DNA from: Verrucomicrobiota bacterium
GTDB lineage: Bacteria > Verrucomicrobiota > Verrucomicrobiia > Limisphaerales > JAIPKD01
Direction of reading: 5' to 3'
Assembly (NCBI GenBank): GCA_021733835.1
Contig: JAIPKD010000004.1
Location: forward strand, 1,771 to 65,770
DNA length: 64,000 nucleotides
The position numbers and the translations under genes are program-made. This document shows, piece after piece, positions 15,177-28,581 of this stretch; positions within the stretch are counted from its first letter, which is position 1; every line of letters begins with the position of its first letter. The notes below the pieces were generated by a model. The model saw nothing but the letters and a program-made list of their open reading frames with translations. It made no database searches and was not told the origin of the DNA.

Positions 15177-15357
15177 TTGTCCTGGGTCACGTCCCGCCAT
15201 ATTAATGTGAAAGGAGAGGCATGGAATTAGAAATGACCAAGTCGGGAACGCGGACGTGAACAACATCTGATCTCAGATCACTCAACAACTCAACAGCTTA
15301 TTATGATAAATGTCGCTGTGTATTAGCTTTTTAAGCAATTTATCACTGAGTCTTTCG

Positions 15358-15434: not shown

Positions 15435-15965
15435 TTACCAGTGGTGCCCATCCAAAACCTTGTCTGGAGGGCCGAAAACCTGTTCAAGATCTGCTTGTGA
15501 CAATGGAAGGGTATAAAAACGCTTTTCGTCTTCGCGACTTATCGCGACATCGTCACGCAGCAGTAGCTCGACAAGCGTGTCACCAACAAACAAACAAGAA
15601 ATGCCGCGCGTAGCGAACTCATGCGAAACGTCGCGATGTGTGCCGAGTCTCTTGTCATAATACTGACGCCGATAGTCGCGATGAACCTCCTTCAAACCTG
15701 CCTGCCTCAAACCATTGTAGGTCAATGATGCTTGATCTATGATCCGTCCATCCAGCAACCGTAAGCAAAAGCGCGGCGCAGAATCATCCGCTGGTCGCGT
15801 GATCGTGACCTCGTGATACAAGGGCGCGGCACCCGTTTGGAGAGCTGCTCGCGCAGACATAGAACCACTCTCGATGTAACGAATGTTGGGGCGAACGCAG
15901 CCGGATATTAAAACCACGCAGAGAACAGCAATATAACTAGAATGTAGAATTGCGATCATCGGCAC
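15435..15965 (-). CDS. hypothetical lipoprotein-like protein (gene cassette)
   Basis: Hydrophobic N-terminus with LISGC lipobox-like motif; followed by attC. Confidence 0.65.
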   Translation of the reverse strand: MPMIAILHSSYIAVLCVVLISGCVRPNIRYIESGSMSARAALQTGAAPLYHEVTITRPADDSAPRFCLRLLDGRIIDQASLTYNGLRQAGLKEVHRDYRRQYYDKRLGTHRDVSHEFATRGISCLFVGDTLVELLLRDDVAISREDEKRFYTLPLSQADLEQVFGPPDKVLDGHHW

Positions 15966-16142
15966 TATTCAATTATTAGAAATACTTTCCTATCATGTTG
16001 ATATTAGCGACAAACTAGAGATTAATTACTTAAAAAGCCATTAAAAAAGCGACATTTATCGGAATAAACTTTGTATTTGTAAGTGCTTGTTTCTAACGAA
16101 TTGATTTCTGTCCCTGATACGCACAGTTGCGCTGAATCCGGC

Positions 16143-16173
16143 GGAGCGCGGCTGTGTCCGCAGGACCAGCCGC
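16143..16173. repeat. REP-like element, family A
   Basis: GGAGCGCGGCTGTGTCCGCAGGACCAGCCGC. Confidence 0.75.
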
Positions 16174-16210
16174 GGTTTCATTTCGATTACCAACCGTCCG
16201 TGCATTTTAG

Positions 16211-16240
16211 AATCCTGTAGGGATGAAATATTTATAGCAA
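16211..16240. repeat. REP-like element, family B
   Basis: AATCCTGTAGGGATGAAATATTTATAGC, related to copies at 25605-25720. Confidence 0.6.
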
Positions 16241-16283
16241 AAAGCCAACAAACAGAATAAGTCTTGTAGTGTCCCGAATGTTT

Positions 16284-19200
16284 TCATATCGCAGTCCACT
16301 CTTTACAGAGAACCTCCGCCTGCTCCAGAACGGTTTGAGTTGCTTTTTCCTGTTTGTCGGGTGGATAGCCGTATTTGCGCAGAATACGTTTCACAATCAC
16401 CCGTATCTGGGCGCGGGCATTTTCGCGAACAGTCCAGTCTATGCTTACGCTCCGCCTGACCGCTTCAACCAGTTCGTGCGCAATCGTCTTCAGCGTTTCA
16501 TCCCCCAGAACCTTCACCGCACTGTCGTTAACCTCAAGCGCATCGTAGAAGGCGATTTCATCATCGGTCATGCCGAGATCATCGCCACGCCGCTGAGCCT
16601 CGCGAATTTCCTTGGCTAACTTGATTAATTCCTCAATGACCTGTGCTGCCTCAATTGCACGATTCTGGTATTTCCGTATGGCCTTTTCAAGCATGTCTGC
16701 AAAGGATCGCGCTTGAACAATGTTCTTGCGAGAATTCGTCTTGATCTCATCGTTCAGGAGTTTTCTCAGTAATTCCACCGCAAGGTTCCGGTGAGGAAGC
16801 TGCCGCACTTCCTGGAGGAAGTCATCCGATAGTATTGAAATGTCGGGTTTCTTGAGGCCCGCCGCTGCGAAAATGTCGATGACCTCTTCTGAGGCCACGG
16901 CCCGAGATACCAGCTGGCGAATCGCGGTATCCATCTCTTCGGGGCTCTTGCCTTCGCCTTCAACCGTTGCTTTGGCCAGCCCGGCGCGGACCTCCTGGAA
17001 GAATCCCACTTCATCACGAATTTTAAGAGCTTCCTCGTGCGGAACAGCGAGAGCAAAAGCCTTCGACAGCGCCGTAACTTCTGTCAGATAGCGCTTTTTG
17101 CCACCTGTCTGCCGCGTCGCATTGCTTTGCGGCGCAGGCAGATCCTCCAGTTGAAGAATATGTTCTATGGCGGCCGCAATGCCGGCAATACGCCTGCCTG
17201 CGCCGCGCACGTCGCGGCAGGCAGGCTTTGCCGGTTCTGCTTTGAGAACAGAGGTGTAATCGAAACCGTGGAACATGGAGAGGACAATTTCGAACTTCTC
17301 CAACATCACCGCAACGGCTTCTTCCTGGTTGATGGCCGCCTTGCCGCGGCCGCCCGCTTCGGTATAGTCCGCAAGGGCTCGTTTCAACTGATCCGCAAGG
17401 CCGAGGTAGTCAACGACCAGTCCGCCCGGCTTATCTTTGAACACCCGGTTAACGCGGGCTATCGCCTGCATCAGACCGTGTCCCCGCATCGGCTTGTCGA
17501 CGTACATCGTATGCAGCGACGGGCAGTCGAACCCCGTCAACCACATATCCCGCACGATCACCACCTTCATAGGATCGCTCGGGTCTTTGAACCTCTTGGC
17601 CAGGGCCTCACGCCGCGGTTTGCTCCGAATATGGGACTGCCATTCAGCGCGATCAGATGCGGAACCGGACATGACGATTTTCAACACGCCTTTGTCGCCT
17701 GCCTGCCGCGACGCTTTGCTTTGCGGCGCAGGCAGGTCGTCCTCGCTATGCCAATCCGGCCCCAGCTTCACGATGGCGTTGTACATATCCACACAGATTC
17801 GACGGCTCATGCAAACCACCATGGCCTTGCCGTCTAATGCCAGCAGGCGGTCTTCAAAATGGTTCACGAGGTCTTCCGCAACGAGCGAGATTCGCTTTTC
17901 CGTGCCGACCATCGCTTCAAGAGCAGCCCACTTGGTGCGCAGCCTCTGCTTATAGGACTCTTCCTCCCCCTCGGTGATCTCTTCAAACTCCGGGTCGATT
18001 GTCGGCTTTTCCTCTTCCCGCAAATCGATCTTTGCCAGTCTTCCTTCGTAAAAGATGGGAACGGTAGCGCCGTCTTCGACCGCCCGCAGGATGTCGTATT
18101 TATCGATGTAGTCGCCGAAGACCGCCGGCGTGCTGCGGTCGTCACGTTCGATGGGCGTACCCGTAAACCCAATGAAGGACGCATTCGGCAGAGCGTCGTG
18201 CATGTGGCGCGCGAATCCGTCGATGAAGTCATACTGACTGCGGTGCGCTTCATCGGCAATGACCACGGTATTCCGACGAGTGGATAGTTCGGGGTATTGC
18301 CGGCCCTTTTCGTCAGGCCTGCCTGCGCCGCGTCCGTCGCGGCAGGCAGGCAGAAATTTCTGAATCGTCGTGAAAACCACCCCGCCTGAAGGAACCTGAA
18401 GCAGCTCCTTCAAATGCTCCCGGCTTTCAGCCTGAACGGGTGTCTGGCGAAGCAGATCACGGCAGGATGAAAACGTGCCAAAGAGCTGATCGTCCAGGTC
18501 GTTCCGGTCGGTTATCATCAGCAATGTAGGGTTTTCCATGGCCGGATGACGGATGATCTTTCCGGCGAAAAACGCCATCAAAAGGCTCTTGCCGCTTCCC
18601 TGGGTATGCCAGATTACCCCGATACGGCGACCGCCGAAGTGTTCGGTTCCAGAGCCATAAGCGGCCTGCGGATCGCGAACCTCATACGGATTGTACGCGT
18701 CATGCTCCGGGAAGCGGGCATACAGCATGTCCGGCTCAGCTTTTATGCCGCAAGCTGACAGGGCATATTCAACCGCCTTATTCACCGCATGGAACTGGTG
18801 ATAACCCGCCGCTTTCTTGACAATCGCGGCACCATCATCCTCGAACACGACAAAGTTCAATACAAGGTCGAGAAACCGCCGTTTTTCAAAAACACCCTTG
18901 AGCAGCACTTCGAGTTCCACCTGTCTGCGTGCGGACACGCACAGGCAGGCAGAACCTCTCGGAGCGACTTCTTTGCCGTCAATCGTGCGCCACGGCACGA
19001 ACCGGTCCCATCCGCTGGTGAGCGTCCCGCCGCGTGCCTCCAGGCCGTCGGAAATGACAAGCAACTCGTTGTAGATGAAGAGACCGGGGATATCGCTTTT
19101 GTAGGTTTGAAGCTGGTTGAAGGCATGGCGGATGGTAGTCTTCTCATCCGCAGGATTCTTGAGCTCGATCACGCCCAGGGGCAGGCCATTGACAAAAACC

Positions 19201-19634
19201 AGAATATCGGGCCGCCTATTCTTTCGATCCTCGATGACGGTGAACTGATTGACAGCGAGCCAGTCATTGTTCTCCAGGTCCCCAAGGTCGAGAAGCCAGA
19301 CCTTGTCGTGCACCTCGCGGCCGTCCTGCATATAGGAGATATCCACGCCATCGGTAAGCATTCGATGGAAACGCTGATTGTTCTCGATCAGGCTGGGTGA
19401 TTCGGTGCGCGTGATTTTCCGGACAGCCTCGCCAATGGCATCCGGCGGGATGTTTGAATTGATGTTTTTAAGCGCGATCTGAAGCCTTCCAATCAAGACG
19501 ACCTGATCGTAATCCTGGCGTTCGCAGGCCGGACCGTCCGGGCTGATATCAGGGCCGAAGGCGGTCTGCCAGCCGAAAGATTCAAACCAGTCGAGGGCGG
19601 TTTGTTCCAGGGTGGTTTCACTCAGACTGGTCAT
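16284..19634 (-). CDS. hsdR: type I restriction enzyme R subunit with five in-frame palindromic inserts
   Basis: RPD...ELKN nuclease motif, [37 protein letters not shown]. Confidence 0.95.
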
Positions 19635-20308
19635 CGCTTCCTCCGTGCCTGAACGCGCCGCTGATAGAGTCGCTCAGTAAACCCGCCTTCTTTTTCAAAG
19701 GATTCGGCCTGAGAGGCAAGCTGTCGGTCCAAAAGGCTGCACGCCACGGCAATTAAAACTAAAGCGGCATTGGCCGCGATTTCTGCGTAAGTAGACTGAG
19801 TGGACTCTTTGGACTTCATAGACGGTCCACCATGTCCACTTTGTCCATGTTGTCCATTCCCATCATGAACTTCCTTCACCCACTGTGCCACCTCATCCGC
19901 GGTAGCGCAACGCCGGTTGATCAGCTCTGCCCGGCGCGGATCTTCCCGCTCCCACTGTGGCAAACACCGTTGCCGCAGAAAATCCTCATAATCCAAGCGC
20001 AGTTCCTCCAGACTGGCCCGGGCCACATTGGTCAGTTTCAGCTCGGTCTTTTTGGATGTTCCAGAAGCCTTGCTGCCTTCGGCGATGTTCTGCACCCCCG
20101 ACCGCGCCGCTTGCACCATCTGGTCCTTTGTCCGGCTGAACCTGTCAACATAGCGGTCACAGAATCGAACCGTCATATCATAAACAAGCTGCGCGACCTG
20201 AAAGCTCTTCAGATTACGGTAACCGCCGTGCTTTGGAATCAGTCCCTCAGAAATTTTGCTTCCCGTTCCGCGTCCACCCCGTCCATGTTGTCCACTATGT
20301 CCACTCAT
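19631..20308 (-). CDS. four-helix-bundle (23S rRNA IVP-like) protein with suffix domain
   Basis: [37 protein letters not shown]. Confidence 0.88.
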
Positions 20309-20532
20309 AAGCCAGCCTCCCGGCAGGTTGTTTCCAAAATGGAAACAACTGAATCCTCATCAAGTTCGCAGGATTCAAAGATGTTCTTCAGATGTTTACT
20401 GACAGCCGGCACCTTTACATTGAACATCCCGGCCAACGCCTTCTGCGTCAGCCAGAAATTCTCGTCATGATACAAGACGCCGACTTTTTTGTCGCCTTCC
20501 GGGGTGCTGTATAGGATGATTTCGTTTTTCAT
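20305..20532 (-). pseudogene. truncated RhuM-family protein N-terminus
   Basis: EIILYSTPEG..ENFWLTQKALAGMFNV..SKHLKNIFES..SVVSILETT, then an abrupt end at a CCTGCCGGGAGGCTGGC element. Confidence 0.7.
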
Positions 20533-20960
20533 AGGTCGTTCACCACCCGATGGATACCGTTTTTCACCATTCGTTCACCGAAATTTACGACCAGCCCCAG
20601 CTTCAATCCGGTCAGGCGAAGATAGGTCAATGTCTGGGTTTCAAATATCTGGTTATATTGGGAAGTAGCCTTACATTCCACAATGACTTTGCCGTCAACG
20701 ATCAAATCAATACGAAGTGGTGTTGAGAGCGTCTGCCCTTTATAGGGTATCGGCAAAGATACCTGACGCTGAATTTGAAGTCCGGCATGGTTCAATTCCC
20801 AGGCAAGGGCTTCTTCATATACGCTTTCCAGCAGACCGGGGCCGCCAAGGGTCCGGTGTACTTCGATAGCGCAACGGACAATCTCGCGGCTGATCTCGTT
20901 TTCGGAATTAACGCAAGGACGCGAAGGCGCAAAGATTTTGTTTATTATCCCTTGCGTCAT
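20529..20960 (-). CDS. GxxExxY family protein (PD-(D/E)XK-like)
   Basis: GPGLLESVYEEAL, RIDLIV..VIVECK, LGLVVNFG. Confidence 0.92.
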   Translation of the reverse strand: MTQGIINKIFAPSRPCVNSENEISREIVRCAIEVHRTLGGPGLLESVYEEALAWELNHAGLQIQRQVSLPIPYKGQTLSTPLRIDLIVDGKVIVECKATSQYNQIFETQTLTYLRLTGLKLGLVVNFGERMVKNGIHRVVNDL

Positions 20961-21138
20961 GGCGTCCCTGCGTCTTTACGTTTTTTTCCTTCATAAGCCG
21001 GCATCAACTCCCATAACTCGTTTTGATGGAGCCGGATCGGATCAGCATTATTTTATACGATTGCGCGGATTTTCTTGAGGATTCGCACGCATCTACATAA
21101 GCTAACAGGCAATCGCTACAAAAAAAGCCTAATAAACT

Positions 21139-24866: not shown

Positions 24867-25346
24867 CTAAGAATCGCCCGGCTGGGCTCCCCCTCCTTCG
24901 AAATCCAAATCCAAATCCAAATCGGGATCGAAATCGAAATCGCTATCGAAATCCTCCTCCTCTATGACCAAGTAGGTTCCGAGCTCTTCGCTAACGTCAT
25001 AGCCCCTCCCACTAAGCTGGCTGAGCATTGCCGCCATGCGGTCTGTCTCTGTTCTACGTTCCCGGCTCTCGGCCTTGTCCAAAGCGTTGCCGACTACGAG
25101 AACGTCCTGGATCGCTGCGCACTCCAATGCCGATCCGCGGGTGATTTCGAAGTATCGCCGCCGGTCGGCTTGTGCCGTCTTGCCGTTTGCTTCGGCAATG
25201 TTCAACGGGATCGACTGACTAGCGCGAAGCCACTGGCCACGTGCCGGACAGCGCGCTCCGGTCAACGAATCGGTCTTCTCGTAAACCCAGGCCGCGTATC
25301 CGATTGACAGACGTTAGACGTCAAGTTTCTCGCGTCCAAGTCCCAT
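24867..25346 (-). pseudogene. four-helix-bundle protein with premature stop
   Basis: MGLGREKLDV*RLSIGYAAWVYE...RASQSIPLNIAEANGK...RGSALECAA; in-frame TAA at 25314-25316. Confidence 0.8.

Positions 25347-26680: not shown

Positions 26681-28581
<1,901 letters not shown>

Follow-up and report, generated by a model that had tools for sequence, protein, structure and literature searches.

How does an intact restriction gene come to carry five short palindromes within its reading frame? The question is raised by hsdR, the gene for a type I restriction subunit R, in a 64,000-nucleotide stretch of a Verrucomicrobiota genome (assembly GCA_021733835.1, contig JAIPKD010000004.1, positions 1,771 to 65,770), referred to here as the window. 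The original prediction, made from the letters of the window alone, had described five palindromic elements of 39, 33, 39, 33 and 30 nt inside an uninterrupted hsdR, whose frame codes for 1116 amino acids. All five lie where it put them, and the core common to four of them, the occurrence of both orientations and the peptides it quoted are all correct (Table 1; elements are named below by their first coordinate). Our reading, to which we give a probability of about 0.7, is that the five palindromes are gene-less miniature elements (minis) of a family whose complete form is a 282-bp GIY-YIG element, that the nuclease likely moves both as selfish DNA, and that HsdR likely tolerates the added loop residues. 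The likely parent, which has the same ends, sits on another contig, beyond the window.

The product of hsdR scores 590 bits against TIGR00348 (cut-off 285) and is likewise assigned to HsdR by Pfam; what we take to be the nuclease and helicase motifs (PDILV...) are legible in the protein. Of 8,000 scored hits, the nearest relatives have 1058 residues and are 89-90% identical, and the gap of 58 residues, or 174 nt, equals the summed length of the five minis. When 120 proteins are aligned, most of them without the five peptides, each peptide stands out as a clean insertion, as the prediction had expected of a comparison with close homologues. At the DNA level, 14 related loci were inspected and counted only where the flanks could be anchored. 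The anchorable loci (8 for element 18920, 4 for 18318, 8 for 17698, 4 for 17193 and 6 for 17104) were all empty, with the exact difference in length; these empty alleles hold no part of the palindromes, and target duplication is absent. Identical minis occur within different flanks. The claim of a mobile micro-element is supported.

That the palindromes are an assembly artefact, or were made in place from their flanks, is hardly credible. The only run covering the whole stretch may indeed be the source sample: contigs of run X1, which carry all five minis with zero differences, are possibly from that sample and hence not independent. Against this, a contig of run X5 is filled at 17104 and 17193, with a single difference over 397 nt; a second contig of that run, ~95% identical, lacks precisely 39, 33 and 30 nt at the remaining three sites. 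Independently assembled contigs agree, the same elements are present in unrelated flanks and genomes, and the empty alleles are without any part of them. The five palindromes are thus confirmed as real, clean in-frame insertions in an intact hsdR.

Read along hsdR, the added peptides are of three types, LPAP... (17104 and 17698), PACR... (17193 and 18318) and ACLC... (18920). When folded as DNA, all 10 strands of the five minis form hairpins better than those of shuffled sequences (z = -2.8 to -5.0). Members of the family share a shape made up of an outer stem of 8 bp and a short inner one, with a bulge of 2 nt on the left arm. Some strands also fold in an offset register that leaves a CAGG overhang; this pairing was set aside, as the alignments fit the symmetric stem with the 2-nt bulge. 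The chance expectation for CCTGCCTGCGCCGC is 0.15 occurrences per whole genome. A two-ended pattern gave 5 matches in the source genome, and its reversed control gave 0 in 61 genomes; in the window outside hsdR, a scan allowing two mismatches gave nothing beyond a pair of unrelated half-matches without partners (10114 and 54722).

The complete element of the source genome lies in frame in hmaB, a 1216-codon HmaB/DUF1156 methylase gene within a Hma and HEC-01 defence locus, where it is read as LPAPRP-[GIY-YIG]-ARQAG. Its sole domain is GIY-YIG (PF01541, 58 bits), of ~94 residues, and it has essentially one open frame (58 of 60 distinct elements). The minis match its two ends closely. The first 15 and last 13 nt of 17193, the first 14 and last 13 nt of 17698 and the first 18 and last 13 nt of 18318 are identical to those of the 282-bp element, and 17104 agrees with it at 13/15 left and 12/13 right positions. 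An empty hmaB site is present on a contig of run X2. RNA run X19 yielded one 35-nt piece at the hmaB locus, too little to be informative, and RNA runs contained just 5-7% of the sequence words. The nearest solved relatives of the encoded module are the UPF0213 proteins 1zg2 and 1ywl; a search of the ESM Atlas returned generic GIY-YIG clusters only, and a search of viral contigs gave distant GIY-YIG matches only (12 loci).

Longer proteins were then considered through the best 120 of 280 hits to the module. Both terminal peptides were present in 115 of their 125 module matches. Manual sorting of Pfam families placed 80 hosts among HsdR, HsdS, HsdM, DUF1156, other methylases, SNF2 and DUF3883, and 24 elsewhere, with 16 unlabelled; 113 modules reduced to ~50 site clusters (25 defence, 16 other, 9 unlabelled). 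The enrichment in defence genes that had been suggested is therefore real, but a restriction to such genes is not, since LeuRS and trigger factor, both above NCBIfam cut-offs, are also hosts. Residues Y12, Y22, G24, R32, H36 and E69, which are putative catalytic residues, were invariant in 18/18 aligned modules, 17 of which had been selected because their hosts are short. Among 17 short hits, the nine that were inspected all carry additional residues on both sides, and most of them resemble fragments of host fusions.

The corresponding DNA set comprised the best 80 of 507 metagenome loci and the source genome's copy. Both ends were found in 77 of these 81 matches, and all 77 are in frame with the flanking codons. 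Their lengths were 282 (71), 279 (3) and 303 (2), with one mis-called at a contig edge, and two elements carry an internal stop. The usual junction is GA/CGG; the first C is invariant (77/77) while the following host base varies, and target duplication is therefore absent. T/T and C/C flanks in the source genome had hinted at a target duplication of 1 nt, a reading rejected because the first C belongs to the element. Left 16 and right -18, each of them a synonymous third position, form complementary pairs in 44 of the 60 distinct elements (AT 14, CG 13, GC 13, TA 4), a result seen in 0 of 10,000 shuffles and retained in 37/52 after thinning to <80% identity. Left 19 and right -21 are complementary in 35/60, with the ends ~240 nt apart. 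This covariation at synonymous positions shows that the ends pair as single strands, in a bulged stem.

Across the phylum, the two-ended pattern matched 29 of 301 genomes, compared to four single control matches, and a stricter version matched 5 of 61 more closely related genomes. Of the 301, two hold the module, both with minis, and the second of these (G205) has the most minis of all (22 matches). Of 93 matches in fetched loci, 70, all from other genomes, were kept; the 23 removed were 7 that belong to another repeat family, 7 whose flanks are repeated, 5 with weak hairpins, 2 that depart from the pattern and 2 partial nested ones. The minis are 27-60 bp in size, and 59 of the 70 have a length divisible by three: 25/27 in long frames, 24/30 outside and 10/13 in between. 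The high fraction outside long frames indicates that this length is intrinsic and needs no host selection. Preference for flanks is loose (purine at -1 in 54/70, pyrimidine at +1 in 61/70), and the flanks give no sign of duplication, with a 1-nt match in 14/70, a 2-nt match in 3/70 and a 4-nt match in 0/70. Open reading in all six frames was found for 41 of 51 distinct minis, and two of the window minis lie in the reversed frame, which is closed in 60/60 full elements. Since minis are open where the full element is closed, they are independent insertions and not scars of a tolerated full element. Pfam matches were obtained for 23 of 37 host frames scanned; 11 of these 23 come from genomes chosen through hsdR and are hence biased; the remaining 12 hosts were five HsdR/HsdM/DUF499, one AlbA/RecG-like, two transposases and four others.

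Six further minis were found in the source genome beyond hsdR, with degenerate clusters on contigs C5, C74 and C83 left out of the count. Four are nested 60-nt units, each a 27-nt element within the loop of a 33-nt element, and the nested unit apparently moved as one. Two of them lie in frames without a Pfam match that we take to be RHS-type, one at the 5' end of an acetolactate synthase frame, where translation depends on the start codon used, and one just downstream of that gene. The degenerate clusters (G000:C5:240-340, C74:43145-43215 and C83:44620-44750) are intergenic mosaics in which the element's left end is joined to other repeats. At another locus (L252:2-100 and beyond), 33-nt minis are arranged head-to-tail, in frame upstream of a complete element, as a BIME-like array. 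A look-alike family flanked by 'catt...aatg' (7 rows: L340, L345, L346, L348, L357, L368 and L380) has longer palindromic flanks and lengths not bound to multiples of three, and was set aside; a Y1 gene is nearby in two of its loci.

How might such elements move? We infer mobilisation by the nuclease, which would be made as part of the host fusion protein. It may recognise the bulged stem in single-stranded DNA, at a replication fork or in incoming transferred DNA, and could cut at the foot of this stem, by analogy with SsnA beside its NTS hairpin. Either the nuclease or enzymes of the host would then join the released unit into another single-stranded target. We place the chance that recognition, cutting and joining take place on single-stranded DNA in this way at about even. 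Enrichment in horizontally exchanged defence genes is consistent with a single-strand mechanism and is not proof of it. In its boldest form the proposal is that these are prokaryotic transposable elements of a new class, whose single-strand transposase would be a GIY-YIG domain of 94 residues made solely as a loop within host proteins. Without duplicating the target, it would mobilise both itself and the minis of 27-60 bp, which preserve the frame, and in many uncultured phyla it would thereby add new peptides to proteins of defence and of housekeeping. We advance this tentatively, at slightly under even odds.

A different enzyme acting in trans, of Y1/RAYT type or an unknown transposase, could instead act on the ends, with the GIY-YIG domain as cargo. 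Duplication-free insertion and a bulged hairpin are general traits of HUH enzymes, and of RAYT in PMC3733652; the module is missing from most mini-bearing genomes, and a Y1 remnant lies ~1.8 kb from the nested mini on C100. Y1 matches were seen in 4/80 full-element loci, as against 2/79 hsdR control loci of twice the length. However, an intact Y1 or RAYT partner, for which the original prediction had proposed to look, was not found: the sole Y1 match in the source genome has two stops. With two Y1 queries, a match was absent from 76/80 full-element and 100/103 mini loci, and two of the three mini-locus matches belong to the other repeat family. The GTAG tag is absent in or beside the five minis, and the invariance of the catalytic residues would not be needed in cargo. 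We consider such a helper, though the main rival, unlikely.

Several observations nonetheless weigh against mobilisation of the minis by the GIY-YIG nuclease. No cutting or movement was observed, and GIY-YIG enzymes are hydrolases for which a joining step is not known. The module has no close match in 27 of the 29 mini-bearing genomes, including the complete genome G088, which implies that minis often endure in its absence or are served by a less closely related helper. The 30-nt mini agrees with the 282-bp element at just 10 of its first 15 nt and at the last 8 nt, and a complete element bearing exactly the ends of its subfamily was not found. Eleven of the 70 minis are not a multiple of three in length, covariation among 18 minis of 33 nt is weak (3 double changes), and the covariation of the ends could result from template switching between inverted repeats and not from selection.

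The hsdR clade to which the source gene belongs is a landing pad for such inserts. Its homologues carry the mini family at several further sites and the complete module in one protein (P0093); density in the source genome is five copies in hsdR as against seven in the other 2.83 Mb. A small number of the remaining 119 proteins also carry an insert at three of the five sites, and a fourth site, 18318, is occupied in locus L298. The same peptide as at 17193 is found in P0003 and P0099, and a near-identical one to that at 17698 in P0010 and P0035. At the 17104 junction, P0002 and G228 have a similar 39-nt element and G225 a different 27-nt subfamily. The 30-mer of 18920 is present in identical form at unrelated sites in G072, G205 and G286 and in viral contigs L136 and L178, these two being the only stretches used from a viral-contig scan whose 128 stretches were mostly chance or another family. 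Particular junctions have probably been hit repeatedly.

Such sharing of sites may also be explained if the inserts reached hsdR mainly by recombination or homing-like conversion between alleles, and not by five fresh insertions. This would agree with near-identical peptides at the same sites in other homologues, with identity of >80% across phyla within the clade, which points to exchange of alleles, and with the presence of filled and empty alleles in one sample. On the other hand, carriers of the peptides at 17698, 17193 and 17104 rank only 8th to 60th of 119 by local identity and are not the closest local relatives, in a protein-level test that very short conversion tracts would escape. 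In a quick tree of 67 rows, the two other carriers at 17698 lie apart, with well-supported branches between them; site 17193 is unsettled by the tree, which is compatible with a single origin there. One junction has received two different subfamilies, and homing cannot account for ~50 unrelated sites. We judge conversion as the main route to be improbable.

Do the inserts serve HsdR? The original prediction had raised the possibility that they diversify or modulate the protein, for instance, as would now be supposed, against anti-restriction proteins. Their density in hsdR and the enrichment in defence genes could be taken this way, as could purifying selection on hsdR overall (dN/dS 0.05-0.06 against three relatives, with signs of decay absent). 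Restriction needs HsdM and HsdS, and HsdR on its own cannot restrict; neither hsdM nor hsdS was found in the assembly, which is 92% complete, and a role in tuning HsdR is therefore unsupported. Further, the peptides vary by frame and orientation, most homologues are without them, and a length divisible by three arises without host selection, being a property of the element outside long frames. Retention for the benefit of HsdR is thus very improbable. An AlphaFold model of HsdR (mean pLDDT 87, pTM 0.87) places the inserts in predicted coil between secondary-structure elements, with local dips in confidence, and residues 804-814 appear to extend a helix in part. For variability in length among ~100 distant HsdRs, all five positions rank in the 78th-96th percentile, a value that gaps from the inserts themselves may raise. 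Of the suggestion that the elements are tolerated in surface loops, the loops as such are therefore upheld by the model and the length-variable positions, and tolerance is likely. Defence genes are probably enriched through their horizontal travel together with tolerance of inserts. Unrelated palindrome-coded inserts were also seen in frame in the same protein families (P0022, P0002, P0042, P0048, P0078, P0105, P0107 and P0192); these include the short peptides VGADGHP, GTACRAP and GPRAC and two domains, DUF559 with PSPxPSPxG-type ends and Y1 with GTGVPPV-type ends. Convergence of several unrelated hairpin-plus-enzyme families on defence genes is thereby suggested.

The closest published system is that of the Ssn nucleases with their NTS/SRM hairpin repeats (Chenal et al. 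2025, PMC11893778). There, SsnA cuts single-stranded DNA beside the NTS hairpin and needs Y6, Y17 and E64 for cutting; the IS-like layout of NTS-ssnA-NTS is noted and mobility raised as a hypothesis. Both systems tie a single GIY-YIG domain of ~94 residues to oriented hairpin repeats of ~30 nt, and Y12, Y22 and E69 of the module match Y6, Y17 and E64 in kind, with the spacing one residue shorter. Ssn genes are free-standing with separate repeats nearby, and 2% of NTS lie inside genes, whereas here the ends are in frame, the domain is fused to hosts and empty sites prove insertion. The SRM consensus given there matches 0/5 window elements and 0/93 related matches.

The resemblance to Rickettsia palindromic elements (RPEs) put forward originally extends only to in-frame fusion: both are palindromic DNA in frame in unrelated genes, adding a peptide (PMC10969869). 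RPEs are ~150 bp with a conserved peptide, unlike these elements of 27-60 bp with several frames, both orientations and a candidate autonomous partner, and RPE models in NCBIfam gave zero matches to them. REP/RAYT systems (REPtrons) and TIRtrons, as described by Di Nocera et al. 2013 (PMC3733652), share imperfect hairpins of 20-40 bp, some of them intragenic, nested or tandem arrays and a small enzyme gene bounded by repeats; in contrast, the enzyme linked here is GIY-YIG, with no consistent tyrosine transposase, and many copies lie inside genes. As for REP tags, GTAG is absent within 10 nt of all five minis, CGTC is absent directly at their ends, and the flanks vary freely. [quoted passage not shown] Absence of duplication and paired, bulged ends recall IS200/IS605, yet only GIY-YIG and no HUH/Y1 transposase is encoded, and the target is loose and not a fixed 4-5 nt. 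GIY-YIG homing endonucleases and inteins also have a nuclease domain inserted in host genes, inteins in frame too. The present element differs from these in having no intron or splicing domain (94 residues; TIGR01453 score 23 against a cut-off of 56), in occupying ~50 unrelated sites as against one cognate site, and in its gene-less minis. In its working it resembles a hybrid between Ssn/NTS and single-strand elements of REP/IS200 type, and by their defining traits it is not Ssn/SRM, RPE, REP/RAYT, a classical MITE or a homing endonuclease. No description of such an element was found in the literature covered, which holds few subscription papers and no supplements (those on Ssn could list relatives of the module); its peptide motifs were absent from the 20 papers listed of 34, which judging by their titles concern other subjects.

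We know of no enzyme named so far for the spread of RPE-like in-frame palindromes. Here minis, empty sites and a candidate autonomous parent are tied to one genome, and the question of mobility becomes directly testable with a 94-residue protein together with short oligonucleotides. The elements are real, a form of hairpin-plus-nuclease selfish DNA that would count as categorically new were the nuclease shown to be its transposase. Should the nuclease indeed move DNA, its transposase chemistry would lie outside the DDE, HUH and serine classes, and the element would be among the smallest autonomous ones. Many 'GIY-YIG fusion' annotations on HsdR, HsdM, HsdS and Hma would then describe passengers and not defence domains. 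A nuclease that cuts and does nothing more may still be Ssn-like, acting on single strands with a new specificity.

Table 1. Features of the hsdR locus (window coordinates) and elements elsewhere in the source genome (G000, contig coordinates)
Feature	Position	Strand or orientation	Remarks
hsdR, type I restriction subunit R	16284..19634	(-)	1116 aa, frame and motifs intact; carries five inserts
Mini, 39 nt	17104..17142	(-), as hsdR	13 residues added, aa 832-844; junction GA/Y
Mini, 33 nt	17193..17225	(+), opposite to hsdR	11 residues added, aa 804-814
Mini, 39 nt	17698..17736	(-), as hsdR	13 residues added, aa 634-646
Mini, 33 nt	18318..18350	(+), opposite to hsdR	11 residues added, aa 429-439
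Mini, 30 nt, sister subfamily	18920..18949	(+), opposite to hsdR	10 residues added, aa 229-238
Four-helix-bundle gene	19631..20308	(-)	TIGR02436 and TIGR04258; 9-nt tandem flanks
Fragment, presumably RhuM-like	20305..20532	(-)	75 codons; sole match is to the beginning of a frame of 348 codons that lies upstream of hsdR in L008
GxxExxY gene	20529..20960	(-)	TIGR04256
Complete element, 282 bp	G000:C34:32744-33025		CCTGCCTGCGCCGCG to CGCGGCAGGCAGG; in frame in hmaB
Mini in hmaB	contig C34
Mini, 30 nt	contig C7
Nested 60-nt unit	G000:C56:80-139
Nested 60-nt unit	G000:C56:27024-27083
Nested 60-nt unit	G000:C56:28914-28973
Nested 60-nt unit	G000:C100:1999-2058

Upstream of hsdR there are only the four-helix-bundle gene, which occupies the place of hsdM and hsdS in related loci, the truncated frame that we take to be RhuM-like, and the GxxExxY gene. 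The truncated frame is a sign of a truncated island. A second, presumably RhuM-like, fragment at G000:C66:10175-10413 has the same last 50 nt as the first, with a decayed-looking CCTGCCGGGAGG stretch. Tandem units of 9 nt at 19825-19856 and 20272-20303 flank the genes of 19631-20960; four-helix-bundle coding sequence is also present at 24867-25265, with further tandem units near 25265. An Rfam scan of 16000-21000 gave nothing credible. A separate family, an AT-rich repeat of ~55 bp, has inverted copies at 15292-15347 and 16014-16070 and roughly 25 or more similar copies genome-wide; between these two copies lies an orphan frame (15435-15965) without a Pfam match. Finally, a tandem repeat with a unit of ~15 nt is found at 28501-28560, between frames that presumably encode succinate dehydrogenase flavoprotein-like and iron-sulfur-like proteins.

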